From the NCBI GenBank assembly GCA_947494155.1, contig CANLTW010000001.1, positions 151,971 to 215,970 of the forward strand: a DNA stretch of 64,000 nucleotides, read 5' to 3'. Origin of the DNA: Chlamydiota bacterium (GTDB lineage Bacteria > Chlamydiota > Chlamydiia > Chlamydiales > RGXB01). The position numbers were made by a program, and so were the translations under genes. The notes beneath the pieces are model-generated. The model did no database searches. It had not been told where the DNA came from and saw nothing but the letters and a program-made list of their open reading frames with translations. Below, piece by piece: positions 20,572-58,018 of this stretch; within the stretch, counting starts at the first letter, position 1; every line of letters begins with the position of its first letter.

Positions 20572-20596
20572 AGTTAAAGGCTAGGAAATTCTCTAG

Positions 20597-21942: not shown

Positions 21943-21965
21943 ACACTATTAAAAATTATAAAAAT

Positions 21966-21998
21966 AAGCGGGTCATAAATAAGTGGCCCGTTTTTTTT
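21966..21998 (+). terminator. Intrinsic terminator
   Basis: AAGCGGGTCA...TGGCCCGTTTTTTTT. Confidence 0.85.
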
Positions 21999-22128
21999 AG
22001 AGAAAATGGAAAAAATAAAAGAAAAATTCGGCTTTTTTAAAAAAACAGTTTTAAAAATTCTTAATTTTTCTTATAGGGGGTTTAAAAACTAAGCCATTGC
22101 TTTACCTTTTTAACCCATGAGAGGAAAA

Positions 22129-23244: not shown

Positions 23245-23265
23245 TAAACTCTTAGAAATTTTTAC

Positions 23266-23299
23266 AAAAAAATGGAGATCGTTTTGGTCTCCATTTTTT
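23266..23299 (+). terminator. Intrinsic terminator
   Basis: AAAAAAATGGAGATC-GTTTT-GGTCTCCATTTTTT. Confidence 0.88.
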
Positions 23300-23419
23300 A
23301 TTTAAATAAATTAAAAAAAATTTTTTCAAAAAAAACTATTTACAATTCTTTTTTTTTAGATTATAGGTAGATTAAAAAATAAAGCCGTAGCTTAACCATT
23401 AACCTTTTTGAGGTAAACA

Positions 23420-24526: not shown

Positions 24527-24547
24527 TACAAAGAGAAGAACACGTAG

Positions 24548-24576
24548 AAAAAAGGCCGGTAATCCCGGCCTTTTTT
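24548..24576 (+). terminator. Intrinsic terminator
   Basis: AAAAAAGGCCGG-TAATC-CCGGCCTTTTTT. Confidence 0.9.
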
Positions 24577-24794
24577 ATTTAATTGCAATAGTTGGTTCTT
24601 TAAAAAAACGTATTCAAAAAAAGCTATTGCATCTCTTTATATTACTTGCTGTAATTAAAAATTATTTGCATGAGAAAACACAAAATGAAAATATTTTTTT
24701 AATTTTCTATTTTAAAAAATTCTCCTTTCAGGTATGAGAAGAGTTAATAGGAAAAAAAGCCGTTTGATGAATGTCTAACCTTTAAGAGGAAAAG

Positions 24795-26045: not shown

Positions 26046-26072
26046 GCACTCAAGATCCAGCAGTGTTTCAAC

Positions 26073-26102
26073 AAAAAGGTGCCTACGGGCACCTTTTTTT
26101 TT
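26073..26102. terminator. Bidirectional intrinsic terminator containing the stop codon of the convergent gene
   Basis: AAAAAGGTGCC-TACG-GGCACCTTTTTTTTT. Confidence 0.85.
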
Positions 26103-27132
26103 GAAAAAAAAGATCGGTTAAATGGAACTGGCTTTTGTTGCTTAATCCGAAAAAGAAAAATTGTTTTTTCTGGGCAAATTTTAAACTATTTTTTGGGGAA
26201 ATATCCTCATCATAAAGCCACAGATTTTTAAATTTTGAGGGGTAAAGATTATCGGTATAGGGAAAATCGTTTTTATATTTCGAAAAAATGCAGGAGAGAA
26301 CATGTTCTTCCGGAAAAACACTTAAGAAAGGCAGACCGCTTTCACAACATTTATAATAGCTATTTACCACTTGAACCGTGGGAGCAAAGGAGAAATCCAA
26401 TCCAAAAATGGGGGTTGTAATACGGTATTGAATGAGGGGGTTCAAATCTGTCAATTCGGTGAGTTTCTCCAGAGCAGGGGAAAGAAAATTTGCCCTCACC
26501 ATCACTTTATCTTTTATTAAAAAGGCGTGATGCTTTTTGATCACATCAAAAATAGGATCAATCGAGCGTATCGGGATTAATCGGGAGTCAACCCAAAGAA
26601 CATGACTAAAACCCAGTTTAGACGCCTCAAGCATTAAAAATATCTTGAAGCTATAGGGAACAGCAGCATAACGGATCTCTTTGCCTGTAGGGTTGGGAAA
26701 TCCCCCTATTCTATAGAAGAAGTAACCGTTAAACCCATGCGCCTCAAGATTTTTGATGGATTGATGAATGAGCTCAGGATTCCTTAAATTTGAGCCGTCC
26801 ACAGTCGTTACAACGCAGCAAGATGAGCCTTTATTAATCTTGATGAGGCATTTTGCCAGATTGTCGGCAGAAAACTTTTGATCGACCCCTCGAAACACTC
26901 TTTTCGATAGATGAGTTTTTACCTCTTCCAACTCTTTTTGTGTTAACTCAAAATTCTTTTTTTCTTCTCTAAACAAGGATTCTATACATGTAGAAATATT
27001 TGCTTTTTGTATATTTTCCTCAAGCTGCTTATAGTACTTGTTCTCTTCAGCAAACTCATCAGGAACCTCAAAAAGAAAAGGATTTATGCTTAGGGAAAAA
27101 AATAGATACATGGGGGTGAAGTAAAAAGACAT
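26083..27132 (-). CDS. Putative exported GT-A-fold glycosyltransferase, paralog A
   Basis: Hydrophobic N-terminus; GFNGYFFYRIGGFPNP...PYSFKIFLMLEA...VLWVDS...FPEEHVLS. Confidence 0.55.
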   Translation of the reverse strand: MSFYFTPMYLFFSLSINPFLFEVPDEFAEENKYYKQLEENIQKANISTCIESLFREEKKNFELTQKELEEVKTHLSKRVFRGVDQKFSADNLAKCLIKINKGSSCCVVTTVDGSNLRNPELIHQSIKNLEAHGFNGYFFYRIGGFPNPTGKEIRYAAVPYSFKIFLMLEASKLGFSHVLWVDSRLIPIRSIDPIFDVIKKHHAFLIKDKVMVRANFLSPALEKLTELTDLNPLIQYRITTPIFGLDFSFAPTVQVVNSYYKCCESGLPFLSVFPEEHVLSCIFSKYKNDFPYTDNLYPSKFKNLWLYDEDISPKNSLKFAQKKQFFFFGLSNKSQFHLTDLFFQKKRCP

Positions 27133-27137
27133 AATAA

Positions 27138-28202
27138 TTAATCCTCTGATGGGGTAGCGCTATTAGCTCCCTCGTTCGAAATACCAAAAAAATAGTAATT
27201 TTTGCTTTTGGAAAATACCGCTAATTTTTGATCCATTTTGGCATTTGGGGAGTATAAATAGAGCTTTTTCCAAATTTCAGGGTACAACTCGTTCAAAAAG
27301 GTCGCGCGAGAAAAATGCTTTTCTAAGAGGGCTGAAAGTACTATCTCCTCTGGATAACAAGATAAAAAAGGGGTGCCCAGTTGGGATGCGGTATAAAATC
27401 CATCAATCAGATTTTCTACTTCTTTCAGCTGCATATTAAGGCCAAATACCGGCGTAGCTAATGCGCGATTTTTCTCATAAGAGGTTTTTGTAAGGGCAAG
27501 TATAGCCTTTTGGGCCTCAAGAAAAATATTGTTTTTTCCCATGGTGTGCGTGCTATTAAAAAGCCCTCCTGCGTCCCGAATGATTGAGAAAAGGGGGGTG
27601 ATATTTTTCAGTGCAACCAATCGAGCATCTACCCAAAGAATAGTTTGAAATCCTAGTTGTTTTGCCTCTTCCATTAAAAAAATTTTAAAGGCATAAGGGG
27701 TAGCACTCAAATTGAGCTCGAACCCTCTAGGGGTCGGATATCCCCCTATTCTGTAATAAAGATATCCATCAAATCCTGTTTTCTCCAAAGAGTTCTTGAG
27801 GCGTTCAAGAAGTCCTTTAGGCCTCCTTTTTCCAAAGCCTACACAACTAACAACAAGATTACTCCCCCCACGATTGATTTTGATGAGGTTTTTAGAGGGT
27901 TGTTCTAGCTTCAACGGATCGGAAAGACGCATCCTTAAAGCAATCCCCATCCTTTCAAGAACAGACTGGTAAAATAGACGGAAAAAGTCCTCCTCATGAA
28001 TTCCGCAAAGACCTCTTTCATGATTGTAAACCTCTTTAAGGCGGTTTTCCAATAGATGAGAATCAAGCATCTGATCGATATTTTGAAAATCTTCATTTGT
28101 TGGCTCTTTTTTTGGGGGATACTCTAAATAAAAAGGGGAAAGAGCGAGAAAAAATGGGGTTAGAATTTTTGTATAGGAGAATATTTCAAGAAAAAATTTC
28201 AT
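27138..28202 (-). CDS. Putative exported GT-A-fold glycosyltransferase, paralog B
   Basis: Tandem paralog of A: GFDGYLYYRIGGYPTP...PYAFKIFLMEEA...ILWVDA...YPEEIVLS. Confidence 0.55.
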   Translation of the reverse strand: MKFFLEIFSYTKILTPFFLALSPFYLEYPPKKEPTNEDFQNIDQMLDSHLLENRLKEVYNHERGLCGIHEEDFFRLFYQSVLERMGIALRMRLSDPLKLEQPSKNLIKINRGGSNLVVSCVGFGKRRPKGLLERLKNSLEKTGFDGYLYYRIGGYPTPRGFELNLSATPYAFKIFLMEEAKQLGFQTILWVDARLVALKNITPLFSIIRDAGGLFNSTHTMGKNNIFLEAQKAILALTKTSYEKNRALATPVFGLNMQLKEVENLIDGFYTASQLGTPFLSCYPEEIVLSALLEKHFSRATFLNELYPEIWKKLYLYSPNAKMDQKLAVFSKSKNYYFFGISNEGANSATPSED

Positions 28203-28238
28203 TTGTAATTTCAGGAATTTTAAGCAAAAATACTCTAC

Positions 28239-29276
28239 ATGAAAATCTTTGTGATTAGAATTGGTTTCTTTTTTTTATTTTGGACATGCAGTCTTAACGC
28301 AAAAGCACCCGATAGCTGGGGCAAAACCCATTACATTTGGAATTTAGGTTTGAGGCAAGAATGTGATGTGGGGGTAGACTGTGAGCCAAATGAGTATTTC
28401 TCAGCGAGTGAGTTTCTCTATAAAAAAGAAAACTATCAGAGGATTAAAGATGGGGATATTGTTTGGATAAGACCCCCCTTTTTAAAACCTTTCTACAACG
28501 ACTTTATAGAAAACTTAGACAAAGAAATTGTTCTTGTAATTTGTGATGGGGATGAGTCTTTTCCGAAAAATTGTGGCTTGAGCCCAACAGAGCTGGAGAA
28601 TCTTTTAGCGTCTCCTTATGTGCTGCATGTGTTTACGCAAAATTTTGACTATAAAGGTCCTTCCAAAAAAGTCTCCCCAATTCCTATAGGGATAGATTTT
28701 CATTCGGTTGCTTTCAAAGGGGGTTATTGGGGAATGACAGGCTCTCCTGCACATCAAGAGCAGGTTCTAGAAAAGATCCTCCAAACTTCATGTCCTACAA
28801 GAAATAGAAAAAAAAGAGCTTTCGTCGATTTTCAGCATAGCGAATCGATGCGTGCTAGTTTCGCAAGATATAAAGAGTTTGGGGAAGATAGAGCCAGTAT
28901 ATTTGAAAAAATTAAGAACAGCGGTGTGGTAGACAGCTCGTCAAGATACCCTCGAGAAGCGCTATGGAGAAAAAAAAGCGAGTATGCTTTTTCCATAAGT
29001 CCTTGGGGAAATGGATTGGATTGTCATAGAACATGGGAAGATCTAGTGTTAGGTTGTATCGTAATTGTTAAAACCTCCTCTTTGGATCCCCTCTACGAGG
29101 GTTTACCCGTTGTTATAGTGAATGACTGGGATGAAATTCACGAGGAAAATTTGAATAAATGGTTTCAAATCTATCAAGACGCGTCTGAAAATGGGAATTT
29201 TAGAGAAAAATTAACCCACAAATACTGGATGAAAAAAATCGTTGCAAAAACGAAATTTATAAATACCTTTTCATAA
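28239..29276 (+). CDS. Exported exostosin-like (GT47-related) glycosyltransferase
   Basis: Signal peptide ending SLNA; PIPIGID, FSISPWGNGLDCHRTWEDLVLGCIVIV, LPVVIVNDW. Confidence 0.65.
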   Translation: MKIFVIRIGFFFLFWTCSLNAKAPDSWGKTHYIWNLGLRQECDVGVDCEPNEYFSASEFLYKKENYQRIKDGDIVWIRPPFLKPFYNDFIENLDKEIVLVICDGDESFPKNCGLSPTELENLLASPYVLHVFTQNFDYKGPSKKVSPIPIGIDFHSVAFKGGYWGMTGSPAHQEQVLEKILQTSCPTRNRKKRAFVDFQHSESMRASFARYKEFGEDRASIFEKIKNSGVVDSSSRYPREALWRKKSEYAFSISPWGNGLDCHRTWEDLVLGCIVIVKTSSLDPLYEGLPVVIVNDWDEIHEENLNKWFQIYQDASENGNFREKLTHKYWMKKIVAKTKFINTFS

Positions 29277-29417
29277 AAAAGAGAAAAACAAACCTCCTGG
29301 GAGTACTATAGAAACTATTTTACCCTTTTTTTTCAAAAAATGTTTCCTCTAATTGGGATCTTTTGTAAATAGAAGTTAAGTGTAAAAAATACTGTTTTAA
29401 ATTCTATAGGATTTACC

Positions 29418-30587
29418 ATGAACAGAAAAATATCAAGTTGTTTACCGGTGCTGTTCGTGACAGCCGGTCTATTTGGGGCAGCAGGCAACAGCTCCAGTAA
29501 TACAAAGGAGGCGATCCAAGATTGCGCACCCTTATGTTACGCAAGCCCCATTTTTGAATGTGAATCGCCTTGGGAGGTTTACGGAGGGGCGATTTACCAG
29601 CAGTTTAGAACCCAATCGCAAGAAATTGCTGTTCTCACTCAAGACACAGCTCAACAACCATTCAACCAGACTAACACAAACGGTTACTACCCTGCTCCCT
29701 CCTATCCTTTGAATGGCACAGGGATAGAAAATATGGAAGATTTCGGTTGGGGTGCAAGAATAGGATTTGGTTACAGAACTTGGTACGATGACTGGAAGGT
29801 CAATCTCCGCTACACGTACTTAAAAATTACAACCAATTATCCCTCTCCAAACCTATCCTACGGGATGGGTTATAATCCCTCAGGATACGCAAACCAAATA
29901 ATAAATGGGCAAACCTTACTTCCTAGTCCCCAATTCCAACCATCTGGAGGACAGGTCTCCCAAAGATCCCTTTTTAGAAACTTGGATTATGGTGTCAGCA
30001 CGATTTTTAATGATGTGAACATCTCTATTTCTCGCCCCACAAAGATCAGTAAAGATTTGGAAATAACTACCTATTTGGGATTTGATGTTTCTTTTTTTAC
30101 TAGACGAGCAAACCCTGTATTCACAAATGCTTTTGATGGTGGTTACGCCTTATCGCAGGGACTTTTCTTTCAGAACTATCAAAAAATCTCCTGGTGGGGA
30201 GTGGGGCCGATGATTGGTCTTCATTCAAGTTGGTATCTCGCCTATGATTGGAGTTTTTATGGGGACGCTTTTACTTCTCTTGAGTATGGACTCTCTTCGT
30301 CAAGAACATCTACCTTCTCTAGGACAAGTCAGCAGACCACAACAAGAGAGGCAACGCTTCAAAACTTTCTTTATCAATACAGCCCAAACTACCATTTTGC
30401 TTTAGGGTTTTCTTGGATGAAAATTTTAGAAGAATTTGACACAAAAATCACCTTCAACATTGGTTACGAGACTACATATTTTAGTCAGGTGATCAAACCT
30501 CTTATTCCTGAATTGAACTACAAAACAACAAATGGCGCAGGTCTAGGTTTACAAGGTCTTGTGTTACAAGGTACAGTGGATTTCTAA
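29418..30587 (+). CDS. MOMP-like outer-membrane beta-barrel protein, paralog 6
   Basis: Signal peptide, DCAPLC...C, FQNYQKISWWGVGP, GLQGLVLQGTVDF. Confidence 0.8.
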   Translation: MNRKISSCLPVLFVTAGLFGAAGNSSSNTKEAIQDCAPLCYASPIFECESPWEVYGGAIYQQFRTQSQEIAVLTQDTAQQPFNQTNTNGYYPAPSYPLNGTGIENMEDFGWGARIGFGYRTWYDDWKVNLRYTYLKITTNYPSPNLSYGMGYNPSGYANQIINGQTLLPSPQFQPSGGQVSQRSLFRNLDYGVSTIFNDVNISISRPTKISKDLEITTYLGFDVSFFTRRANPVFTNAFDGGYALSQGLFFQNYQKISWWGVGPMIGLHSSWYLAYDWSFYGDAFTSLEYGLSSSRTSTFSRTSQQTTTREATLQNFLYQYSPNYHFALGFSWMKILEEFDTKITFNIGYETTYFSQVIKPLIPELNYKTTNGAGLGLQGLVLQGTVDF

Positions 30588-30611
30588 TCAACTAAAACGT
30601 TTAACAAAGAA

Positions 30612-30642
30612 GATTCCGGCTCATAAGGCCGGAATTTTTTTT
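30612..30642 (+). terminator. Intrinsic terminator
   Basis: GATTCCGGCT-CATAA-GGCCGGAATTTTTTTT. Confidence 0.88.
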
Positions 30643-30796
30643 GATAAAATATTAAAAACTAATGCTGAAGAAACGGCTGAAAGAGCATTTTGAGCAGTTT
30701 TTCAAACATAAACCTTTTTTTTAAAAAACGGTTTTTGTAAATGGAAGATAACAGATAAAGCCGTATTAAAAGCTAAAACCCTTTCAAAGGTGAGTC

Positions 30797-31906
30797 ATGA
30801 GTCTAAATAAAATTAGAATTCTTCCGATGGTTGTCGCATCAGCAGGTCTTTTTGCCGCGAGTGCGCCAAATCAAAAAAAGATCGATAAAAATGAAGCAAG
30901 AGATTGCAGTTATCTCTGTGTTCCCAGTCCTATGCAAGAGTGCGACGCGCCGTGGGATCTTACGGCAGCCGCCACCTATCAACAAGTGCGCGTGCAAGGT
31001 GCAGATCAGGCGCTAATACAAAACGATCGATTAAACTTTTTTTTCCCTTCAGGCGGGCTTGGAGTGCAGCCTTACGATGATTTTGCCTGGGGTTTTCAAG
31101 TGGGTGCGGGCTATACCGACTATGAAAGAAGCTGGAGATTTGCTGCAGATTATAACTACTTTAAAGCTATTTTCAATAAGCCTCTAGATCTGTCTTACGG
31201 TCAAGCCTTTGTCCCTTCTGCTTACGCTAACGTTGTTTTGGATAGCAACATCGGAGCTTTGGGTTTTAATAACCTCCAATTAGGAAACTATACCCTTTTC
31301 AACAATGTGGATTTGACGGTACAAAGACCTAGTATGATCACACCGAATCTAGAATTTACCACACTTTTTGGGTTTGATGTACAATTCTTACAAAGACGAC
31401 AGCTTTCTGTCTTTACAAATGGTGTGACCGATACTACCACTGTGGGATTTATCTCTTCTTTAGGCGGTTACTTTCAAAACTACCAAAAATATACCTGGTG
31501 GGGCGTAGGACCTGAGGTTGGATTCCATTCGAATTGGAACTTGGGATCGAACTTCTATTTCTTTTTCGATGGAAAAGGTTCCCTCTCTTATGGTCTATCC
31601 TGTATGAGAGCAGCGACTTTTGCTAAAAGGGTTCTCACTGCTCCACTCCTGACTTATGATCAACGTGAGGCTGCTGTGCAGAACTACATGTATCAGTGGT
31701 CACCGGCAATGAAATATCTTTTGGGTATATCCTGGTCAAAAGTACTGGATTCTAGCGAATCCAGGCTTACCATGAGACTTGCCTACTCCTCTCAGTACTT
31801 TTTCTATCTAATGAGATCGGTGAATCCAGAGGGGTACTATCGCTCTGAAAACGGTGCTGGTTTCGGATTGCAAGGGCTTATTTTGAGCGCTTCGATCGAC
31901 TTCTAA
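30797..31906 (+). CDS. MOMP-like outer-membrane beta-barrel protein, paralog 7
   Basis: Signal peptide, DCSYLC...C, FQNYQKYTWWGVGP, GLQGLILSASIDF. Confidence 0.8.
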   Translation: MSLNKIRILPMVVASAGLFAASAPNQKKIDKNEARDCSYLCVPSPMQECDAPWDLTAAATYQQVRVQGADQALIQNDRLNFFFPSGGLGVQPYDDFAWGFQVGAGYTDYERSWRFAADYNYFKAIFNKPLDLSYGQAFVPSAYANVVLDSNIGALGFNNLQLGNYTLFNNVDLTVQRPSMITPNLEFTTLFGFDVQFLQRRQLSVFTNGVTDTTTVGFISSLGGYFQNYQKYTWWGVGPEVGFHSNWNLGSNFYFFFDGKGSLSYGLSCMRAATFAKRVLTAPLLTYDQREAAVQNYMYQWSPAMKYLLGISWSKVLDSSESRLTMRLAYSSQYFFYLMRSVNPEGYYRSENGAGFGLQGLILSASIDF

Positions 31907-31937
31907 AAAGAGAAATAATCTTAAGGTTATTGAAAAC

Positions 31938-31964
31938 AAAGGACCCTTTTTTAAGGGTCTTTTT
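31938..31964 (+). terminator. Intrinsic terminator
   Basis: AAAGGACCCTT-TTTT-AAGGGTCTTTTT. Confidence 0.8.
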
Positions 31965-32063
31965 CTTTTTTAAAACGGCTTGAGAAGACTGCTTAGATTC
32001 TGTTTTTTTGTTTTTCAAATATTTTATTGAACATAAAAGGTTGAATCTCTAGAAGAGGGTGTT

Positions 32064-33236
32064 ATGGTCAAAAACACTCCCTATCTATTTGGAGGTGCCC
32101 TCACGATTAGTTCCATCGTTTGTCTCTCTTTTATAACCCCTTTAAAGGAGGTTTTTTTTAAAGATCATCATCTAATTTTAGCCCAAAACGGTTGTAAAAG
32201 CTCTTTAGAGAATCGAGATGGAATTGAACCTTGTACTGAGGGGAAATATCTAGCTTACGCAGCCCCCCTGGTAGGGTGCACCTATTCGTACGACTTGTCT
32301 TGTGCAGCTACTTATCAAATCTCCTCAGTCCAAGGAGTCGATATTGCCTGTATTACTAACGATCGCACTAACGTTTATTACCCTGTTGGTGGATTAGGTA
32401 TTCAACCCCCCGAAATTCTCGCGTGGGGATTTAAAGTGCAATTGGGGCATAAATTAGAACAAACCGACTGGGTAGTGCGTACTGAGTACAATTATTATAA
32501 AGCTGTAGCCAATTCAGGGACAAGAGTGCCTTACGGCCAGGGATTTTCCCCGTCAGCGTATGTAAATACTCAAGTGGATAAAAAACTTCCCGTATATACT
32601 ATTTTTTCAAACCTTGATATGGGGACATCTACTTTTCTGAATAATTTTCGGCTGAACATATCACGTCCCAGCAGGATCACCCCCCATTTGGAATACACAA
32701 CCCAACTAGGTTTCGAAGCGAATTTTTTCCAAAGAAGACAACTTAGTGTATTTTCCAACGCTGTCGGTGATACAACGACAGGGTATGTTTCTAATCTCGG
32801 AGGGTTTTTTCAAAATTATCAAAAATTCTCCTGGTGGGGATTGGGACCAAGTATAGGTTTAACCTCACGTTGGGATCTGGGGAGTTATTTTTATTTTCTT
32901 GCTAATGGGTATGGTGCAATCACCTACGGAAATTCTTACTCTAGAACTGCAACCTTTAGTAAAAGAGTGATAGGAACCGCTACATTTGATGCACGCGAGG
33001 CTGCTGTTCAAAATGGGATGTCCCAGTTTGCCCCCTCAATGCGCTATCAAATGGGTTTAGAATATTGCTATTTATCTCAAGGGAGCGAAAGTCAGGTTAA
33101 TTTTGAAATTGCGTATGAGACGGCCTACTACTTTAATTTAATCCGTACGATTACCCCTGAAGGGGCGTTTCGAGGGGAAAATGGGGCAGGTTATGGACTA
33201 CAGGGGTTGATTTTACAGGCCGGCATTACATTTTGA
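32064..33236 (+). CDS. MOMP-like outer-membrane beta-barrel protein, paralog 8 (atypical N-terminus)
   Basis: WGFKVQLG, FQNYQKFSWWGLGP, GLQGLILQAGITF; most similar by eye to paralog 7. Confidence 0.78.
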   Translation: MVKNTPYLFGGALTISSIVCLSFITPLKEVFFKDHHLILAQNGCKSSLENRDGIEPCTEGKYLAYAAPLVGCTYSYDLSCAATYQISSVQGVDIACITNDRTNVYYPVGGLGIQPPEILAWGFKVQLGHKLEQTDWVVRTEYNYYKAVANSGTRVPYGQGFSPSAYVNTQVDKKLPVYTIFSNLDMGTSTFLNNFRLNISRPSRITPHLEYTTQLGFEANFFQRRQLSVFSNAVGDTTTGYVSNLGGFFQNYQKFSWWGLGPSIGLTSRWDLGSYFYFLANGYGAITYGNSYSRTATFSKRVIGTATFDAREAAVQNGMSQFAPSMRYQMGLEYCYLSQGSESQVNFEIAYETAYYFNLIRTITPEGAFRGENGAGYGLQGLILQAGITF

Positions 33237-49265: not shown

Positions 49266-49931
49266 ATGATGAAATACTTGCTTTTGCGGCTGCCTGGGGC
49301 GCTATTGGTTTTTGGTTTTTTAATCATCGTCCATTACATGCAGTTTAGCTTCGTTCCCGTTAAGAATAGGTTCGGTGCATTATTTAGCCGAATCGAAGCC
49401 GAAAATTTTGATGTTTTTATCATCTCGACGGAGGAAAAACCGGTCTCAAAGGAGCTTGTTGACTCATTACTAGGGCAAAAAGATGCAGAGGTTAAAGTGC
49501 ACCTGCTGGATCTCAGACAGGCAAAAGGGGAATTTCATGAGAAAGAAAAATTTGAGTACAAACGTTGTGCCCCCGTTGAGCTCCTCGATTTTTTTCATAA
49601 AGAGGTTTCCAAAATCAACCCTAAACATATTCTTGTATTTATAGACCCTCTAGAAAAAAAGGTGCACCCCTTTCTTATGAGAAAAATCAGGCATCTCTTC
49701 CATAGCCGCGAGGTGAAAGCTGTTTATACCGATAGAAAAGTAAAGCCTACGCAGAAGCATCCGGGATGGGAGCAGGCAAAAATAAAAGCCTACCATGTTG
49801 AGCTTATCAAGCAACTTGATATAGAGAAAATCCGGACTTTGGAAGAGTATCATCAAGGAATTTTTTTCTTAACCGATGAGAATTTTCTTTTTTCAACAAA
49901 ACTTCTGGATCCTGACCCCGAAAATATTTGA
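49266..49931 (+). CDS. Membrane-anchored, degenerate GT2-like protein
   Basis: N-terminal TM; FDVFIIS...SLLGQ...VHLLD...ILVFIDP pattern resembles GT2 but the acidic motifs are eroded. Confidence 0.45.
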   Translation: MMKYLLLRLPGALLVFGFLIIVHYMQFSFVPVKNRFGALFSRIEAENFDVFIISTEEKPVSKELVDSLLGQKDAEVKVHLLDLRQAKGEFHEKEKFEYKRCAPVELLDFFHKEVSKINPKHILVFIDPLEKKVHPFLMRKIRHLFHSREVKAVYTDRKVKPTQKHPGWEQAKIKAYHVELIKQLDIEKIRTLEEYHQGIFFLTDENFLFSTKLLDPDPENI

Positions 49932-49969
49932 AAAGTTCAATTGAAAGTTTTTTCTTAAGAGATTTCCCC

Positions 49970-51040
49970 ATGCGCTTACCCCTTTTTCTTCTATTTGTCA
50001 CCCCCTTCTTTCTTATTGCCAAAGAGAGCTACGAGACGATTCACGAAAAATTTTCTCACCCTGGCTGCTATGAGCAAAATAGAGATTTTTGTCAGAAAGT
50101 GCACCGTATTGTACTAAACGAGTTTCCCCGTGCCTACAACCCCTCCTTAATTTACACCGAGCATGGATATACCCTTTTTTTCCGTTTTGATGAGTTTTCT
50201 CCGCATCAACAAAAAAACAGTCGATTTTCGTGCATGACCTATGTGGGTTGTGTGGAGTTGAACAGATCCTTCATGCCTATTTCCAACATAAAAGTGCTGG
50301 ATTTGAAAAGTTCTTACGCTGAGGATCCCCGGTGTATCCTTTTTGAAAACCAGCTCTATTTATTTTATAACGACATCGATATCAAAGAGCCTTCAATCAG
50401 AAAAATGAAAATGGCGATTTTGGAGCCTAAGACCAAAAGAGTTTTGGAAATTGTGGATCTCCCGGGTGGAAAAAAGAGAGTAGAGAAAAATTGGACCCCA
50501 TTTGTGTACCAAAAAGAGGGGGAAAAAGGGCTCTATTTTGTGTACGATCTCTCCTTATTTCACGTATATAAGCTGGAAAAACACCAGGAGCAGTGGAAAA
50601 TAGAGCCCCTTTCTCCCCCCTCAATTAAGTCCACTCAAAAAGAGTTTTGGGAGAAGGAGTTTGGCTCTTTGCGCGGAGGGGCCCCTTTAATCCAAGTAGA
50701 TGGGGAGTTATTTTGTTTTTACCACTCCTCTTTTTATGAAAAGAAACCCTTTTGGCAGAAAATCTCAAAAACCTGTTTCTATCATATGGGTCTTATAACT
50801 TTTTGCGAAAAAACTTTAGAACCAAAAGGGATGCTCCCCTTTCCTATCTTTTATTCGGATGCGTTTGCGACACCCAGAGGGGAACGTTTCAATAAGTGGG
50901 TGATTTATCCCTCAGGCGCAGTCTATAATAAAGAAGAAGGGAAAGTCTTAGTTTCTTTAGGGGAAAATGACCGGGGTATGCTTATTTTGGAATTTGATAA
51001 AGAGATATTTTCAAAAAAACTAGTTCCAATAGAAAAATAA
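49970..51040 (+). CDS. Exported five-bladed beta-propeller glyco-enzyme (GH130/GT91/GT108-like), paralog 1
   Basis: Signal MRLPLFLLFVTPFFLIA; YNPS, EDPR, EKNWTPF, LRGGAP, VIYPSG, GEND. TTG 49928 is an alternative start. Confidence 0.65.
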   Translation: MRLPLFLLFVTPFFLIAKESYETIHEKFSHPGCYEQNRDFCQKVHRIVLNEFPRAYNPSLIYTEHGYTLFFRFDEFSPHQQKNSRFSCMTYVGCVELNRSFMPISNIKVLDLKSSYAEDPRCILFENQLYLFYNDIDIKEPSIRKMKMAILEPKTKRVLEIVDLPGGKKRVEKNWTPFVYQKEGEKGLYFVYDLSLFHVYKLEKHQEQWKIEPLSPPSIKSTQKEFWEKEFGSLRGGAPLIQVDGELFCFYHSSFYEKKPFWQKISKTCFYHMGLITFCEKTLEPKGMLPFPIFYSDAFATPRGERFNKWVIYPSGAVYNKEEGKVLVSLGENDRGMLILEFDKEIFSKKLVPIEK

Positions 51041-51053
51041 ACGGACTTTAAGT

Positions 51054-52172
51054 ATGTGGACCCCCTTTATTTCAACGCTTTTGACACTTTCGATCTCTAT
51101 AGCTGGAACAATCAATAAAAGAGATGGGATCGGGAGGCAATCGATCGAATTGGGGACCGCATTAAAAAACACCTATAACATTCAGGTGGTCCCTTTTGGA
51201 GAATGTGGAGAGCTATCTAAAGAGGAGATGGAACTTGTAGAGACCGATTTGAGGAATCTTCACCCGATTGTGCTTCTCAATACATCGCTTCCCGAAATTC
51301 CCCACATGGTGGAAATCTTAAAAAGATATAAAAAGCCTGGGCAAAGATTTTTGGCGTATACCATGATTGAATCGGATTTTGTGGATCCAAGATTTGTCGA
51401 ATATCTTAATTTTTTCGAGGCCATTCTTGTTCCCGACCCATTCCTGGTGGAGGTATTCCAAAAAAGCGGCGTTAAGCCCCCTATTGAGGTGATACCTCTC
51501 GCGGTCGATTTGAGTAAATTTCTCTCAAAACCATTAAAAAAAACGCTCCATAAACCTTTTGTGTTTGGAAATTTTTCCGGTTGTATTTTTAGAAAAGACC
51601 AAAAAATTCTCCTGGAGGCTTTTCATGAGGAGTTTGGATCCTCAGAAGAGGTTTTATTGTATCTGTTTTTTAGGGGAGGAGATACAGCGTGTATCAAGGA
51701 AATACGGAAGTATATTCAATCTCACGGGTTAAAAAATGTGAAAATAGAATCGGGCCCTAAGCCCCCAAGGGCGTATATTGAGGCCTTCGAGTCGCTGGAT
51801 TGTTACGTCTCGCCCTCATGGGGTGAGGGGTTTAGTATTCAGCCTCGGGAGGCGATGGCTTTAGGAATACCCACCATAGTTTCTAGAAATACCGGGCAAA
51901 TCACTATAGCCGATTCGGGTTTGGCGTTTGTCCTTTGTAAACAAGAGAATATTAAAGCTGTGTATTCTTTAGGTTATAATATTTTTAATATGGGCAATAT
52001 GCAGCGCTCTAATAAAGAGGAGCTAAAGGAGCTTCTGAAAAAAATCTTTATCCAAAAAAATATGATTCTAGATGGAAATGAAAAATTGCGCGATTGGGCG
52101 ACCCGATACGATATTGAGCGGGGCCCTTTTGTGGAGGAATTTATCCAATTTTTTGAAAAAACTTTTGGGTGA
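51054..52172 (+). CDS. GT4-family (GT-B) glycosyltransferase
   Basis: DGIGRQS, YTMIES, IPLAVD, RKDQ..LLEAF, DCYVSPSWGEGFSIQPREAMALGIP. Confidence 0.85.
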   Translation: MWTPFISTLLTLSISIAGTINKRDGIGRQSIELGTALKNTYNIQVVPFGECGELSKEEMELVETDLRNLHPIVLLNTSLPEIPHMVEILKRYKKPGQRFLAYTMIESDFVDPRFVEYLNFFEAILVPDPFLVEVFQKSGVKPPIEVIPLAVDLSKFLSKPLKKTLHKPFVFGNFSGCIFRKDQKILLEAFHEEFGSSEEVLLYLFFRGGDTACIKEIRKYIQSHGLKNVKIESGPKPPRAYIEAFESLDCYVSPSWGEGFSIQPREAMALGIPTIVSRNTGQITIADSGLAFVLCKQENIKAVYSLGYNIFNMGNMQRSNKEELKELLKKIFIQKNMILDGNEKLRDWATRYDIERGPFVEEFIQFFEKTFG

Positions 52173-52179
52173 GAGTACG

Positions 52180-53250
52180 ATGATTATGTTATTTATGAAT
52201 ATTTGGCTTGGTTCAGCTCTTTTTGCGATGACAATTGCAATCGATAGCCCAATTTTACAACAAAAAGAGTGTCTTGAAGCAAATGAGGGGATTTTTTTTT
52301 CTGTAAAGAAGATCGATATCCCCCGACATAAAAATACATATAACCCCTCTATTGTCACTTCAAAAGGGGGCTACACCCTTTTTTTTCGTTATGACGAGAA
52401 AGAAGAACATTTTTTTCACGAAAAAAAGTTTGGTGGTTGTACTTACATAGGGTATTGCCAACTTTCAAAAGAGCTTGAGGTGATATCTAAGCCGAGGTTT
52501 TTAGACCTTAAAAGCTCCTATGCGGAGGATCCTCGAGCGGTCTCTTATGGGGGGAAAATTTACGTTTTTTATAACGACATTGATTTCCAAGATTCTCTCA
52601 AAAGGAAAATGAAATTAGCCGTTTTGGATGAAGAAAGCCTAAAAGTGGAAACCCTCTATTTTATCCCGGGAGGAAAAAGGAGAGTCGAAAAGAACTGGAC
52701 TCCGATTGTATTTGATGAGGGAGAGAAACAGAGACTTGGATTTATCTACAGTTTCGATGATCTTTCTCTATTTACGATCGATTTTATCGACCAAAAAATT
52801 GTTGTAGAACCCTATGGAACCGAAAAAATGGGGGGGAATTATCCCTTTGCGTGGCTTAAAAAATATGGGTTTCTAAGAGGCGGTGCCCCCGTATTTTACG
52901 CTGATGACCGCTTCTGGGCTTTTTTTCACTCCTATTTTAAAATTAAAACTCCGGTGAACAATTATGAAGATCGGAAAAGTTTTTTCTATGTGGGGGGTTT
53001 AGTGACATTTGCAGTAAAACCCTCGCTCCATTTTGATAAAATAAGCCGTTTTCCACTTCTCTATGAGGGGGCGTTTTCTACTAAAAGAGTCCGCTGTTTT
53101 GATAAAATGGTGATCTATCCCTCTGGCTGCGTCTACGATAAAGAGACTCGAGTGGTGCTTTTAGCAGTTGGAGAAAACGACAGCGGCATCAAACTTTTGA
53201 AAGCCGATTTGGATTCTTTAAAAAATTCGATGGAAAAGGTCAATCCATGA
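52180..53250 (+). CDS. Exported five-bladed beta-propeller glyco-enzyme, paralog 2
   Basis: Hydrophobic N-terminus; YNPS, DLKSSYAEDPR, GGKRRVEKNWTP, LRGGAP, VIYPSG, GEND. Confidence 0.65.
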   Translation: MIMLFMNIWLGSALFAMTIAIDSPILQQKECLEANEGIFFSVKKIDIPRHKNTYNPSIVTSKGGYTLFFRYDEKEEHFFHEKKFGGCTYIGYCQLSKELEVISKPRFLDLKSSYAEDPRAVSYGGKIYVFYNDIDFQDSLKRKMKLAVLDEESLKVETLYFIPGGKRRVEKNWTPIVFDEGEKQRLGFIYSFDDLSLFTIDFIDQKIVVEPYGTEKMGGNYPFAWLKKYGFLRGGAPVFYADDRFWAFFHSYFKIKTPVNNYEDRKSFFYVGGLVTFAVKPSLHFDKISRFPLLYEGAFSTKRVRCFDKMVIYPSGCVYDKETRVVLLAVGENDSGIKLLKADLDSLKNSMEKVNP

Positions 53251-53867
53251 GCTTTTTTTTTAACATTTTAGTTCTATTCCCTCTTTTTTATTTGAATATA
53301 GAGGCAAACCCCAAAGTCGAGAGAATCATCGGATTTACCCCATATTTCAGGGTTTTAGAGCGTTTTATGGAGAAAGAATCAGATACATTTCTGCATACGG
53401 AAGCACTGGTATTTGCAGATCTTATGAAGCTGTTTGTACCAAAAAATATCGTGGTTTTGGGAAATTCCAACACAATGTATCCCTTTATGTGTGCCTACTT
53501 TTTGCGCTATTTTGGTGAGGGGAAAGTCTACCACTTCACTGCTTTGGAAAACAAAAAAGAGGCTTATTTGCAAAAAAAATTGCAAAAGTGTTTGAACCGA
53601 TTCCATTTGAATTCGTTTTATCTGGAAACAACCAAAATAAAAGAACTCCCGGAAAAAATCGATATCCTTATTTTAGATTTCAATAGCGGCAGAGAGCCTT
53701 TTATGGAAAGACTTCAAGATTTAAAGGGGAGATTAGCTAAAAATAGTCTGGTTTGGGTGCAAAGCAAAAATAGGGAGATCCCCCCTTCAAACATACCTTT
53801 AACCCCCCTTTCGATCGATCTTTTAGAGGAAGATTCTTTAGTTAGGGTCTATCAAGCACGCGTGTAA
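53247..53867 (+). CDS. Exported class I methyltransferase-fold protein with a degenerate SAM motif
   Basis: Signal ending NIEA; PKNIVVLG...GEGKVY...IDILILD...LAKNSLVWV. Confidence 0.45.
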   Translation: MSFFFNILVLFPLFYLNIEANPKVERIIGFTPYFRVLERFMEKESDTFLHTEALVFADLMKLFVPKNIVVLGNSNTMYPFMCAYFLRYFGEGKVYHFTALENKKEAYLQKKLQKCLNRFHLNSFYLETTKIKELPEKIDILILDFNSGREPFMERLQDLKGRLAKNSLVWVQSKNREIPPSNIPLTPLSIDLLEEDSLVRVYQARV

Positions 53868-53952
53868 TCGAGAGTGTTTTTGCACCATTCTGCTTGAGTA
53901 ACACTTCATCTTTTTATAAAAGTTGCTAAAGGGGCCTTTTGATAAAAAAGAC

Positions 53953-54903
53953 CTACGAGGGAGCTTGATAGGGTTTGAAACTCAAGACGTAGCCCTGTTT
54001 TACCTCGATACGGTAGACAATCAATAGCCCAAATGAGACCACAGCTGTACTCAGTAAAATGATAGGGTGAAACGGTTCGCTGTGGAAAAGGTAGGCGTTT
54101 ATAGAGGCAAATAGGGGGCTTAATAGGTCAAAAAAGGAGATCAAGGTCTCAGAAAACCTTTTCAAAAGATATCCATAAAGATTAGAGCAGAGGATATTCG
54201 ATACTAAAATGATTAAGATCATCCATCCAAAGTAAGGTTTACAATCAAGATTTGCCCACTGTTGAAGGGGGCCTTGCTCAATAAAAAAAGAGGTTATTAG
54301 CGCAAGTAGGCCCCCAAAAAGCATGCTGTAACCATTTATTTTTACCAGGCACATATGTTGAGCTTTGAGAAGCAATCTCATTAAAATCCAGCCGTAAACT
54401 CCGCAAAAAGAGCCCGCGACGGCTGCAATCGAGGGCCAAGAGAAGAGCGCGTCGATTTTGAAAGGGGCCTCTTGGCCGTTTTGAATCATCAATACAGGTA
54501 AAAAACCGACAATAGCAACCCCCACGCCGAACCATTTGATTATCGTCAACTTCTCTTTTAAAAAGATAAAGGACAATAAGCAGGATATAAGAACGCATAC
54601 GCAGGGTGACATGCTGTAGAAAAAGCAGGTTTTAGCCGTGGAGAGGTACTTTAGGCTTAAGTGCTCACAAAGATTGTTAAAATAGATGCTAAACAAAGAA
54701 AGAATGAAAAGGGATATCGCCTCCGTTGAGGAAATTTTGATCGATTGGAATCCCTTTAGCAAAAGCCCTCCCAAAAGGAGAAGCCCAGCTAAAAGCATTC
54801 TTACCCCTACAGTAAAAATCGGATCTGCATAAGCCACAAGCTGTTTTCCGATAGGAAAAGTCAGATGCCCAAGACCATGTAAAAGGGGAATAAGCCAAAT
54901 CAT
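53953..54903 (-). CDS. DMT/EamA-family transporter (similar to the chlamydial SAM/SAH transporter family)
   Basis: About 10 TM helices; PIFTVGVRMLLAG, LKYLSTAKTCFFY, LYGYLLKRFS. Confidence 0.85.
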   Translation of the reverse strand: MIWLIPLLHGLGHLTFPIGKQLVAYADPIFTVGVRMLLAGLLLLGGLLLKGFQSIKISSTEAISLFILSLFSIYFNNLCEHLSLKYLSTAKTCFFYSMSPCVCVLISCLLSFIFLKEKLTIIKWFGVGVAIVGFLPVLMIQNGQEAPFKIDALFSWPSIAAVAGSFCGVYGWILMRLLLKAQHMCLVKINGYSMLFGGLLALITSFFIEQGPLQQWANLDCKPYFGWMILIILVSNILCSNLYGYLLKRFSETLISFFDLLSPLFASINAYLFHSEPFHPIILLSTAVVSFGLLIVYRIEVKQGYVLSFKPYQAPS

Positions 54904-54967
54904 TAAACTCCACGAGTATAGGCTCTATGGATTAGAAAGGAAGTTTAAAAAAGGGCTTGATGAGCTT

Positions 54968-56362
54968 TTATCCCCTTTTACCTATTCCGATGTAGAAAAA
55001 TCCCGCTTGTTCTATCTCTTTGCGATCAAGGATATTTCTGGTATCAAAGACAACCGAAGCCTTAGACACCTCTTTTACCTTTTTCCAGTCGATTTGGGTA
55101 AAAAGGCTCCAGGGGGTAGCAATTACAATAGCGTCGCACTCTCTAAAAACTTCATATAGGGTGGATGCAATAGCTAGATTGGGAAAAAACTTAAGGGCAT
55201 TTGTTGAGGCTATAGGATCAAAACTGGTTACAAAAGCTTTTTTCTCATGGAGTTTCTCGATCATCTTTAAAGAGGGAGATTCTCTAACGTCATCGGTTAA
55301 CTCTTTAAAAGCAAGACCTAGTAGAGCGATTTTTTTACCCTCAAGAGAGCCTAGGGCACTTTCGAGCCGCAAAAGAATTTTGTCGCAACGGCGGTTGTTG
55401 GAACCCACTGCCGCCTCAATGATACTTAGATCCACACCATTTTTCTGGGCAGTTTTTAGAAATGCTAGTGTGTCCTTTGGAAAGCACGATCCACCATAGC
55501 CAGGACCAGGTTTAAGAAAACTCTGCCCTATTCTTTTATCTAATCCTATCCCTAAAGCTACCTCCTCCACATCGGCCCCTATTTCTTCACAGAAATTTGC
55601 AATCTCATTTATGAAGGAAATTTTTACCGCTAAAAAAGAGTTAGAGGCATATTTGATCATTTCTGCAGAGGCTATGGAGGTGGTGCAAATTTTGGCTCCA
55701 TCGTCCAAAATTGGTTGGACGATTTCGGTAAAAAGTTGTGAGGTTTGTGGATCCTCAGCTCCAATCACCACACGATCGGGGTGCATAAAATCGTGCACCG
55801 AGGAGCCCTCACGTAGAAATTCAGGGGCATAACCAATAGAAAATGGGGTCTTTGCTGTGTTGTGTTCCCCAATCACCTCTTTTATTTTTAGCACTGTACC
55901 CATCGGGACAGTGCTTTTTACAAAAACGGTCTTAAAAGTACGAAGATTTTCCCCTATCATCTTTGCTACAGCAAACACATATTCAAGGTTAGCTTCCCCG
56001 CTCAAAGTTTCGGGAGTTCCCACAGTAATAAAAATGACGTTGCTTTCGCGAACGGCATTTTCTAAAGAGGTGGTAAAAAAAAGGCGATTCTGGGCGAAAT
56101 TTTTCTTCACAAGCTCTTCTAGCCCTATTTCATAAATAGGGATTTGACCCTGTTGCAAAGAGGAAATTTTTTGGAAATCTACATCACAGCAGGTCACCTT
56201 GTGCCCAATTTCTGCAAGACAAGTCCCCAAAACCAAACCCACGTATCCCGTCCCAACCACGGTGATTTCTTGAGGGTTTTTTACCGAGTTCAAAGCATAG
56301 ATAGAGGGTTTTAAACAGAAGAAACTTATAAAAAAAAGAATCCTTAGCGAAAAGAGACCCAT
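54968..56362 (-). CDS. ugd: UDP-glucose 6-dehydrogenase with an N-terminal signal-peptide-like extension
   Basis: VVGTGYVGL, VGTP, KSTVP, PEFLREG, EMIKYASN, GYGGSCFPKD, DDVRESP; GAGG SD before ATG 56362. Confidence 0.92.
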   Translation of the reverse strand: MGLFSLRILFFISFFCLKPSIYALNSVKNPQEITVVGTGYVGLVLGTCLAEIGHKVTCCDVDFQKISSLQQGQIPIYEIGLEELVKKNFAQNRLFFTTSLENAVRESNVIFITVGTPETLSGEANLEYVFAVAKMIGENLRTFKTVFVKSTVPMGTVLKIKEVIGEHNTAKTPFSIGYAPEFLREGSSVHDFMHPDRVVIGAEDPQTSQLFTEIVQPILDDGAKICTTSIASAEMIKYASNSFLAVKISFINEIANFCEEIGADVEEVALGIGLDKRIGQSFLKPGPGYGGSCFPKDTLAFLKTAQKNGVDLSIIEAAVGSNNRRCDKILLRLESALGSLEGKKIALLGLAFKELTDDVRESPSLKMIEKLHEKKAFVTSFDPIASTNALKFFPNLAIASTLYEVFRECDAIVIATPWSLFTQIDWKKVKEVSKASVVFDTRNILDRKEIEQAGFFYIGIGKRG

Positions 56363-56448
56363 AAAAAAACCCTCGAAGAAACAGAAATTGAATGTTAATA
56401 TTCAATAATGTTAATTTTTAAACTATTTAGCAATCTTTTGTTTTAAAT

Positions 56449-57252
56449 TTGAATTTGTTTTATGCGATTTTTTTAGGTATTTTCTTAAGTTCTCTTTTTC
56501 CTTTAGAGGCACAACAGCAGGACAAAAGAAAAGCGCTAATCCTAGTAATTTCTAGCGATAATGAGAAAGTTTATCGCTCCCATAAAACCTCCTGGAGAAG
56601 GTATATGCATGCTTTTTCGGAGGATTTTGAAAGCTACTTTATAGAATTTAATCCCCAGTTAACTACCTCTTACAAAGTAGAAGGGGATGTTTTGCAAATA
56701 CAAGGGGAGGAGTCCTATATACCAGGAATATTTGATAAAACACTCCTTGCGTTGAAATATTTTGAAGATCGTTTTGATGCATTTGACTTTGTGATACGGC
56801 CCAATCTTTCGAGTTTTCTCGTTCTTAGCAGGTTGAAAAACTATTTATCAAAACAAAAAAAAGAGAATTTTTATGCAGGACACCCTCTTTTTTACCAAGA
56901 TTATGAGGCGATCAGAGGAAACCACCTCCTCTATGCCAGTGGTGCTTGCCCTATATTTTCCATCGATATGGCAAAGCACTTGATCAAAACAGGAGAAAAC
57001 TTGATGGGCAAGCCCTACGGGGTGTACTACGCAGATGACCTACTTCTGGGCAAAGTTTGTAAAGAAAAGGGTGTGGGGTTAACACCATTCTATAGTTTTT
57101 ATTTCGAACGATTTGTTTCCCCCTATAAGGTTCTGGGCTCTATTTCTCAAGAGACATTCCATTTTCGCATCAAGCTCAATCAGGAGACAAGACACATTTT
57201 TGAAAGGACAATCCATAGAGAGCTCTATGAAATTTTTTATTACCAATCTTAA
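56449..57252 (+). CDS. Exported GT31/Fringe-like glycosyltransferase, paralog 1
   Basis: Signal ending PLEA; LILVISS, ESYIPGIFDKT, FDFVIRPNLSSF, YASGA, ADDLLLG. Confidence 0.6.
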   Translation: MNLFYAIFLGIFLSSLFPLEAQQQDKRKALILVISSDNEKVYRSHKTSWRRYMHAFSEDFESYFIEFNPQLTTSYKVEGDVLQIQGEESYIPGIFDKTLLALKYFEDRFDAFDFVIRPNLSSFLVLSRLKNYLSKQKKENFYAGHPLFYQDYEAIRGNHLLYASGACPIFSIDMAKHLIKTGENLMGKPYGVYYADDLLLGKVCKEKGVGLTPFYSFYFERFVSPYKVLGSISQETFHFRIKLNQETRHIFERTIHRELYEIFYYQS

Positions 57253-58018
57253 GCTGTTTTTTTGGATCTTATGCGTCACTAGTGAGGGAAATGCCGTTTC
57301 AAAGACAAAGAAGGGGCTAGTTCTCCTCTTTTGTTCGGAAGATACACACAGAGATCGAATACATAAAAAAATTTGGCAAAAGTCCTTGGAGGAGCATAAA
57401 GAGGATTTTGAGATCTACTATGTTCATCGCAAGTGCGATCTTACAGCTATCTACGCCATCGAGGAAGAGAGCCTATTTCTTAAGAGACCTAAAGAGGCTT
57501 TATGGCAGACGAGTTGGGGATGGATCGAATCCCTACATATTTTGCAAAATAGGTTAGAGGCTTTTGATTATGTTATTCAGGCAGATATCCGCTCTTTTCT
57601 AGTGATGCCAAAGCTGAAAAATATCCTTGAAAAATACGACGATCCCACACTGTATTTGGGAAACGTTCTCCACTATGAAAACGGGAGATGCAATGGGGAT
57701 TTTGTGGACCACTCTTTTTGTCTTTTAGGAAAACAGTCGGCAAAATTTCTTGCAAACTCGCCCTCATTTGTTGAGGCTTTAAGAACAAATAAATATCTGG
57801 ACGAGGAGATATTGGTCGGCGCAATACTAAGAAAAAAAGGGATTACCCCGGTCCATATCCCCTCTTTTCCATTGAATCGATTTGTACGACCCTACAAAAT
57901 CAAAGACAGGGTAGAGAGTGCAACTTTTGTATTTCCAGTAGATTTAAAGCAATCGACAAAAAGTTACTATTATAAGGAACAGATTCTTTTAGAAGAGCTT
58001 TTTGAAATTTTTACCTAA
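57227..58018 (+). CDS. Exported GT31/Fringe-like glycosyltransferase, paralog 2
   Basis: Signal ending EGNA; aligns by eye to paralog 1 (FDYVIQADIRSFLV, DEEILVG, RFVRPYK). Confidence 0.55.
   Translation: MKFFITNLKLFFWILCVTSEGNAVSKTKKGLVLLFCSEDTHRDRIHKKIWQKSLEEHKEDFEIYYVHRKCDLTAIYAIEEESLFLKRPKEALWQTSWGWIESLHILQNRLEAFDYVIQADIRSFLVMPKLKNILEKYDDPTLYLGNVLHYENGRCNGDFVDHSFCLLGKQSAKFLANSPSFVEALRTNKYLDEEILVGAILRKKGITPVHIPSFPLNRFVRPYKIKDRVESATFVFPVDLKQSTKSYYYKEQILLEELFEIFT

Follow-up and report, generated by a model that had tools for sequence, protein, structure and literature searches.

The DNA analysed here, called the window, is a 64,000-nucleotide stretch (C1:151971-215970) of a Chlamydiota genome of 1.41 Mb that is 97.6% complete; this source genome is denoted G000, and other G codes denote genomes of relatives, and L codes denote loci in G000 or in relatives. 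Its gene content marks the organism as an environmental chlamydia: encoded are a long GreA-like protein, MOMP-like porins, three full-length nucleotide translocases and a topoisomerase whose C-terminal tail is SWIB-like. Between uvrB and uvrD, in DNA whose G+C content is similar to that of the flanks, lies a glycan gene cluster whose enzymes mostly begin with a hydrophobic leader. A first-pass annotation, made from the letters alone, had placed nine genes at this position, and all nine open reading frames are present there, with best starts at 49266, 49970, 51054, 52180, 53247, 54903 and 56362 (both on the reverse strand), 56449 and 57227. The family calls made at the time hold at the level of fold (GH130/GT108/GT91-type propellers, GT31, GT2-like). 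This report concerns these enzymes, their leaders and the compartment in which they may act.

The cluster opens with a short GT2-fold protein (49266..49931, forward strand) carrying a conserved N-terminal membrane anchor. It has no Pfam match, PF00535 included; Atlas structure matches to GT2 (TM-score by query 0.63-0.69) give it a GT-A fold, and the alignment position of the GT2 DxD motif reads D-P/T-x-E. It is possibly a non-catalytic or scaffold subunit. The next product (49970..51040, forward) is a five-bladed beta-propeller with a signal-peptide-like leader and the conserved acid motif of GH130, GT108 and GT91, matching Pfam BMT at 3.2e-7 and GH130 at 1.4e-5. Its model (pLDDT 90) retrieves 7fip (TM-score 0.60) and Leishmania MTP-2 (6q4x, 0.59) in Foldseek, and the motifs EDPR, EKNW, RGG and H252 are conserved. 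Pfam support is even between yeast GT91 BMT and GH130 (17/27 each). A second, leader-bearing paralogue (52180..53250, forward; 39% identity to the first, BMT 0.0094) has its leader in 7/7 genomes. Both propellers are predicted to be beta-mannoside enzymes, acting perhaps in the transferase direction; families of the GH130/GT108/GT91 type include transferases, phosphorylases and hydrolases (PMC12814180). Transferase and phosphorylase are told apart by a His/Arg switch and by loop L2. Between the propellers lies a GT4 glycosyltransferase (51054..52172, forward), which has a GT-B C-terminal domain (PF00534 over the cut-off, 4.4e-11) with the E-x7-E motif, the second Glu being Gln in 2/7 copies. 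The core ends with a Methyltransf_24-like, leader-bearing protein (53247..53867, forward; PF13578 E 0.035, Atlas 0.93 with Methyltransf_24 clusters). Its S-adenosylmethionine (SAM) motif I, normally acidic and glycine-rich, is degenerate, its resemblance to class I SAM methyltransferases is at fold level only, and judged by its motifs it is possibly inactive.

On the reverse strand follow an EamA/DMT transporter (53953..54903), discussed below, and UDP-glucose 6-dehydrogenase (Ugd; 54968..56362, assigned by Pfam and NCBIfam), which bears a signal-peptide-like leader of ~23 residues. All three Ugd domains are present, and GxGxxG and the catalytic Lys and Cys motifs are intact. It is the only Ugd match in the source genome. 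The cluster closes, again on the forward strand, with two GT31-fold proteins, both with leaders. The first (56449..57252) matches the human B3GalT5 profile at 3.1e-8, and its model (pLDDT 89) finds B3GalT5 in Foldseek at 1e-10 with a TM-score of 0.61. It keeps the catalytic-base motif (ADD), EDV being aligned to DDv; the metal-binding DxD is lacking, the B3GalT5 segment KTDSD being aligned to R-T/P-N-L-S (R-P-N-L-S in the window copy). We therefore class this protein as GT31-like and not as a GT31 member. The second (57227..58018) is a divergent paralogue, 26% identical to its neighbour, with still more degenerate motifs. Taken together, three products look catalytically degenerate (the GT2-like protein 49266, the methyltransferase-like 53247 and the second GT31-like 57227), and the Ugd and GT4 products look intact.

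The neighbourhood proved to be conserved: a five-gene core is syntenic in 6/6 same-genus genomes, and ugd adjoins it in all six (partially in G006). The GT31-like pair is present in G001 and G003 and as a single copy in G005; the other contigs stop before it. A promoter scan of the locus was at chance level (13 sites versus 17.3 +/- 4.3); terminator-like sites numbered 19 versus 10.9 +/- 4.0, a figure that we leave uninterpreted. Sequencing runs labelled RNA contained 6-25% of the words and provided no evidence of expression: the contigs listed for run X1 were identical to those of a probable DNA run, and uvrB and uvrD were covered just as patchily.

Leaders were scored by a hydropathy heuristic in which the best uncharged 8-residue window had to reach a mean Kyte-Doolittle value of at least 2.2. 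With hand-picked controls from the same genome the rule flagged 17/20 exported and 2/20 cytoplasmic proteins, and it flagged 8/8 cluster enzymes. The background among the soluble proteins of the genome is 148/765 when one start is considered, or 196/765 when any early start is allowed, so that seven leaders in eight by chance is unlikely (P(>=7 of 8) = 7e-5 to 4.5e-4, computed over genes that are not independent). The first-pass annotation had stated that all eight non-transporter products start with a hydrophobic segment. On closer inspection, the leader or anchor is convincing in seven of them; in the GT4 protein the segment is mostly the first beta-strand of the domain, its LSISI running directly into a conserved G..NKRDGIGRQS loop. 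We therefore rejected GT4 as a clear signal-peptide protein; only ~11 residues precede its first strand, which makes its export doubtful. A GT4 homologue from another family (L028:7985-9265) has a true anchor.

By the same heuristic, the remaining seven resemble Sec/signal peptidase I substrates, which have a short n-region, a hydrophobic h-region and, ahead of the mature domain, a cleavage site of small residues; in 49266 the segment is an uncleaved anchor. The leaders are for the most part short and terminate in such sites, with scores in the range of the porins, BamA and Skp of the source genome. Several lack a positive n-region, and they are rich in Phe (median 4 per 22 residues versus 2 in exported controls). 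In six genes conservation is lower over the first 24 alignment columns than over the mature part (28 versus 50, 31 versus 56, 23 versus 35, 34 versus 65, 42 versus 65 and 32 versus 38%), and these regions remain hydrophobic despite their low identity (23-42%). Judged from the alignments, low conservation with retained hydrophobicity is as expected of signal peptides. The anchor of 49266 is of the uncleaved type and is 81% conserved across 7 genomes. Several cluster genes have no alternative start codon within the first 40-50 codons, and their starts abut or overlap upstream stops; 57227 has one start codon only within its first 50 codons, and the start of 53247 overlaps the upstream stop (ATGA). 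The seven enzymes with a convincing leader or anchor are predicted to be exported via Sec.

Comparison with homologues from outside the lineage indicates that the leaders were gained, since Ugd from elsewhere and the viral relatives of the GT31-like proteins begin with the catalytic domain itself. The contrast is cleanest for Ugd, which in eukaryotes is a cytosolic enzyme. Within the genus, the Ugd leader is present in 6/6 complete copies; the ancestral Met six residues before GxGxxG has been lost in all six, and they share no common downstream start. None of 80 non-chlamydial homologues has a leader (0/80), all 80 starting 6-7 residues before GxGxxG. Within the phylum, where Ugd was found in 165/201 genomes, the 27 best non-genus copies, from other chlamydial families, are likewise leaderless (0/27). 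The leader is thus present in one genus and in none of 107 controls. At L206 and L219, in other chlamydial families, a gene recognised by eye as priming-transferase-like stands close to the leaderless Ugd; no member of that family was found in G000, and one glycan system appears to have replaced another in this genus. In G005, a leader-bearing UDP-xylose synthase (Uxs; human UXS1, E 9e-106) stands beside Ugd, at the position of the DMT gene. Among 30 Uxs loci from other families, a leader occurs in 4 of the 18 readable copies.

The GT31-like family occurs in 16/200 phylum genomes, and by eye all 19 intact chlamydial copies read carry a leader (one broken copy was set aside). Viral contigs yielded 54 homologues, of which 10 belong to named giant-virus metagenome-assembled genomes (MAGs). 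These came from an alignment scan, a single-protein viral scan having given no match. None of the viral copies has a leader (0/54); 53 start at or near the domain and one is a fusion. At L315 a leader is attached directly onto an intact virus-type start. In a quick, unrooted tree of GT31-like domains (80 rows) chlamydial and viral rows are mostly apart, with 2 changes; given the nature of the tree, we claim no direction of transfer. A third GT31-like paralogue (L127:16997-17803, G000:C1:129383-130189) immediately follows two pseudopilin genes in the type II secretion operon, an arrangement shared by G001 and G003. The propeller family occurs in 79/200 phylum genomes and in 0/28 of the small-genome family f35; at that frequency the trait is not a one-off. 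Among the best 150 propeller representatives, 131 carry a leader or anchor (94/104 and 37/46).

The first-pass annotation had likened the DMT protein to a nucleotide-sugar transporter of the Golgi, and this part of the proposal is not supported. The protein has no SLC35-type (NST/TPT/UAA) match, EamA alone being found at E <= 0.1. Two small chlamydial genomes each have one homologue, presumably the orthologue of CTL843, with which it shares 32% identity. The C. trachomatis DMT CTL843 is an antiporter of SAM and S-adenosylhomocysteine (SAH), with 34-38% identity to its Chlamydia-like homologues (PMC3104491). The source genome contains no MetK, and together with this homology its absence weakens the Golgi reading. 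DMT homologues occur in 19/21 genomes searched, with at least two copies in all 7 genus genomes versus mostly one elsewhere; a copy lies inside the cluster in only 2/7 genus genomes, G000 and G006. That of G006 (L026:5630-6594, G006:C57) is split over two frames, by a real break or an assembly error. We conclude from homology and gene content that the protein is most likely the chlamydial SAM/SAH antiporter (SAMHT) and not a stable member of the cluster. A role as nucleotide-sugar exporter was rejected as the leading reading on the same evidence. The likeness to CTL843 extends to two EamA domains, a phylum-wide distribution and an identity within the 32-40% reported for Chlamydia-like homologues (PMC3104491). 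A difference is the duplication of the gene in this genus.

As the first-pass annotation had observed, the cluster holds no wzx/wzy, wzm/wzt or priming transferase. In genome-wide searches, Wzx (PF01943), the priming transferase (PF02397) and the PMT_2-type GT-C enzyme (PF13231) gave 0 matches in the 97.6%-complete G000; for Wzy and Wzm/Wzt the negative covers the cluster. Donor-activating genes are few. The only PF00483 gene of G000 is GlgC-like, as in 4/5 relatives (G005 has two more weak matches), and GalU, RmlA and ManC were not found in this genome. The lack of these three, of MetK, of the priming transferase and of Wzx favours host-derived donors. Leaderless sugar enzymes are nevertheless encoded, namely GlgA, GlgC, MurG, a second dehydratase/reductase pair, two GT25 proteins and one UDPGP-family protein (G000:C1:61925-62710) that could supply some UDP-sugar.

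Elsewhere in the window, positions 19453-33236 hold an array of eight MOMP-like porin genes (PF05150), into which three leader-bearing, Pfam-negative GT-like genes are inserted (26083-27132, 27138-28202 and 28239-29276). The MOMP-like porins are candidate acceptors. To survey leaders beyond the cluster, 126 proteins were scanned, comprising 103 leader candidates of G000, chosen by hand out of a longer list compiled by rule, and 23 proteins encoded at loci of relatives. In G000, leaders are borne by GT17, two GT47/RXYLT1-like, GT2, GT28-like and GT4-like proteins and a 4,6-dehydratase/reductase pair; in relatives' loci, by GT11, GT25, GT34 and GT92 proteins and by methyl- and sulfotransferases. 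The leader-bearing 4,6-dehydratase and reductase (L149:11187-13269, G000:C4:49154-51236) are also present in G002 and G003, and the second, leaderless pair is at L172:6448-8649. More stretches of GT-like genes with leaders, most of them without a Pfam match, occur at L155:17667-L156:6427 (G000:C5:75728-80728), L190:1342-5714 and L173:12471-17836. At L136:13206-15817 (G000:C2:148053-150664) stand three tandem leader-bearing genes of the AvrB/AvrC effector family (PF05394); AvrB is a transferase that uses UDP-rhamnose, and the leader-bearing rhamnose pair would be consistent with such a function. Leaders were also seen on adjacent adenylate kinase (Adk) and choline-kinase-like genes (L172:549-2209, G000:C10), and on a CMAS-type methyltransferase, a GNAT acetyltransferase and two 2-oxoglutarate-Fe(II) (2OG-Fe(II)) oxygenases (L136:17593-18759, L173:8108-8914, L124:17345-18031 and L185:11921-13042, respectively). 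The cofactors of the CMAS-type, GNAT and 2OG-Fe(II) enzymes are normally cytoplasmic.

Taken together, these results favour by a modest measure a system in which Sec-exported enzymes assemble glycans, without a lipid carrier, in the periplasm or the adjoining inclusion lumen, from host donors and onto the bacterium's own envelope. The enzymes would cross the inner membrane by Sec, most of them being cleaved and the 49266 anchor retained. Uncleaved anchors, in 49266 and several homologues, favour a site on the inner membrane facing the periplasm. Host UDP-glucose, GDP-mannose, NAD+ and SAM would reach the periplasm or lumen; we infer the presence of host cofactors there because the SAM importer and the nucleotide translocases must draw on that space. 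Exported Ugd could then convert UDP-glucose to UDP-glucuronate in the same space, and Uxs in one relative and the rhamnose pair elsewhere in the genome would widen the donor set. Beta-mannose would be added by the propellers, and a sugar in beta-1,3-type linkage by the GT31-like enzyme; the three degenerate products (GT2, methyltransferase and second GT31) are putative partners or scaffolds. Components of the envelope, for instance the MOMP-like porins, may be the acceptor; the interleaving of GT-like genes with the eight porin genes and the stable synteny of the core point to the bacterium's own envelope. The DMT protein would import SAM and not export nucleotide sugars. The earlier proposal of extracytoplasmic synthesis is thus indirectly supported by lineage-specific leaders, by the lipid-carrier machinery not found and by the few donor-activating enzymes, shorn of its Golgi-type transporter. 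More tentatively, and with slightly less than even confidence, we suggest that periplasm and inclusion lumen together form a host-fed, Golgi-like compartment, to which enzymes shared with giant viruses and other bacteria were retargeted by an added signal peptide. There they would convert host nucleotide sugars and yield a heteroglycan coat without lipid carrier or flippase, and in this genus the compartment would also contain the sole phosphoenolpyruvate carboxykinase (PEPCK).

Several observations weigh against envelope glycosylation by exported enzymes. The hydropathy rule flags some cytoplasmic controls too, the GT4 leader is unconvincing, and a TTG at codon 24 of the window Ugd may give rise to a leaderless form. 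By family, the propeller chemistry could be that of a transferase, a phosphorylase or a hydrolase. The leaderless UDPGP-family gene, dehydratase/reductase pair and two GT25 genes indicate some cytoplasmic sugar chemistry, which tempers the case for a host origin of the donors. A search of G000 for a collagen-like repeat as a possible acceptor found none. In addition, the sole PEPCK (GTP) of the genome (L185:9080-10978, G000:C15:28759-30657) bears a leader in 7/7 genus genomes versus 0/8 other-family copies read. Leaders on PEPCK, Adk and the choline-kinase-like, CMAS and GNAT proteins imply that the trait extends beyond glycosylation and may have another cause. The PEPCK of some relatives retains an internal start, which could give a cytoplasmic form.

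Of the alternatives, the one we take most seriously, while regarding it as unlikely, is that Sec is followed by type II secretion and that the enzymes act on host or inclusion-membrane substrates (effectors or an inclusion matrix) and not on the bacterial envelope. A type II secretion operon is present in G000, and in 3/3 genus genomes seen its pseudopilin genes are immediately followed by the third GT31-like paralogue; viral homologues would act in the host cytoplasm; and leader-bearing PEPCK, Adk and the three AvrB-family proteins fit a cofactor-rich destination. Substrates of Sec and type II secretion are known to reach lumen and cytosol in C. trachomatis (PMC6717882). However, the uncleaved anchors (49266; propellers of G010, G033 and G039; GT4 of G031) cannot be type II cargo, and the stable synteny and the GT-like genes within the porin array again point to the bacterium's own envelope. 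It is less probable still, to the point of being improbable, that the leaders merely tether the proteins to the membrane or are signals put to little use, the catalytic domains staying inside, and that the glycan pathway is cytoplasmic, with an unrecognised exporter. NAD+, SAM and nucleotide sugars ordinarily reside in the cytoplasm, the leader on the sole PEPCK is hard to explain by export, the GT4 protein looks cytoplasmic, and the lack of a positive n-region in several leaders would fit; against this stand the short leaders with small-residue ends that score like those of porins, BamA and Skp, the lack of GalU, RmlA and ManC matches in G000, and the failure to find a Wzx, a priming transferase or a PMT_2-type enzyme through which a product made in the cytoplasm could leave it.

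The fuller version of the earlier proposal, a self-contained bacterial Golgi in which the DMT protein exports the bacterium's own nucleotide sugars to the periplasm, appears very improbable. Duplication of the gene in all 7 genus genomes would have allowed one copy to change substrate, it adjoins ugd in G000 and G006, and the UDPGP-family gene could supply a donor; yet the protein is homologous to the SAM/SAH antiporter family in a genome without MetK, its gene lies outside the cluster in 5/7 genomes and is frame-split in G006, and donors made inside the cell would render the export of Ugd unnecessary. Hardly credible, finally, is the idea that in-frame reading of T-rich DNA upstream of the genes created the leaders artificially, with true starts downstream. 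The abundance of Phe would fit such an origin, but open, hydrophobic leaders persist in all orthologues despite 23-42% identity, and the start codons are constrained as described above.

If host-fed assembly onto the bacterium's own envelope is correct, it constitutes a surface-glycan route distinct from all described bacterial ones, and it would show that pathways requiring cofactors can operate, in intracellular bacteria, beyond the inner membrane in a space that the host feeds. Bacterial nucleotide-sugar chemistry is, by the textbook rule, cytoplasmic, and periplasmic glycosylation uses lipid-linked donors; a Sec-exported line of Ugd and glycosyltransferases would break that rule. Bacteria are not known to assemble sugar chains beyond their cytoplasm out of precursors that a host provides. 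The system also offers a testable source for the surface glycans of environmental chlamydiae. In the literature searched, which mostly excluded subscription journals and could have missed a mention in a supplementary table, we found no description of Sec-exported glycosyltransferase clusters in chlamydiae, and the excerpts of the PaGT6 (PMC3516806) and Babela genome (PMC4378268) papers do not mention signals on glycosyltransferases.

Among known systems, the Wzx/Wzy, ABC and GT-C (oligosaccharyltransferase, PMT) pathways resemble the present one in their end product, probably a surface glycan, but use cytoplasmic Leloir enzymes and lipid-linked periplasmic donors, and the marker genes searched for were not found here. 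The eukaryotic Golgi (GT31 B3GalT5/B3GNT2, yeast GT91 Bmt, UXS1, SLC35) shares folds, the topology of an N-terminal signal or anchor and the absence of a lipid carrier; it differs in that a dedicated nucleotide-sugar exporter is unsupported here, the GT31-like proteins lack DxD, Ugd bears a leader, and most leaders look cleavable. The leaderless GT31-like proteins of viral contigs and giant-virus MAGs belong to the same family and have the R-T/P-N-L-S-S motif in common, but begin at the catalytic domain, whereas the chlamydial copies carry a leader. GH130 mannoside phosphorylases and Leishmania GT108 MTPs, families with known dual transferase/phosphorylase chemistry (PMC12814180), have the same five-bladed propeller and conserved acid motif; the cluster propellers are only 10-15% identical to them, have equal Pfam support for GT91 and carry an export leader. 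Closest in principle is lumenal glycogen synthesis by C. trachomatis, where host UDP-glucose is brought into the inclusion lumen and nucleotide-sugar enzymes use it outside the bacterial cytoplasm, the donor-activating enzyme staying unexported (Gehre et al. 2016, PMC4829429). In that system the enzymes have no signal peptide and are delivered by type III secretion, and the product is a storage homopolymer. By contrast, the present cluster is predicted to combine Sec-type signals with heteroglycan enzyme families and to include a donor-converting dehydrogenase. If export is confirmed, the system would be categorically new, its nearest known counterpart sharing the principle and differing in route, enzyme set and product.

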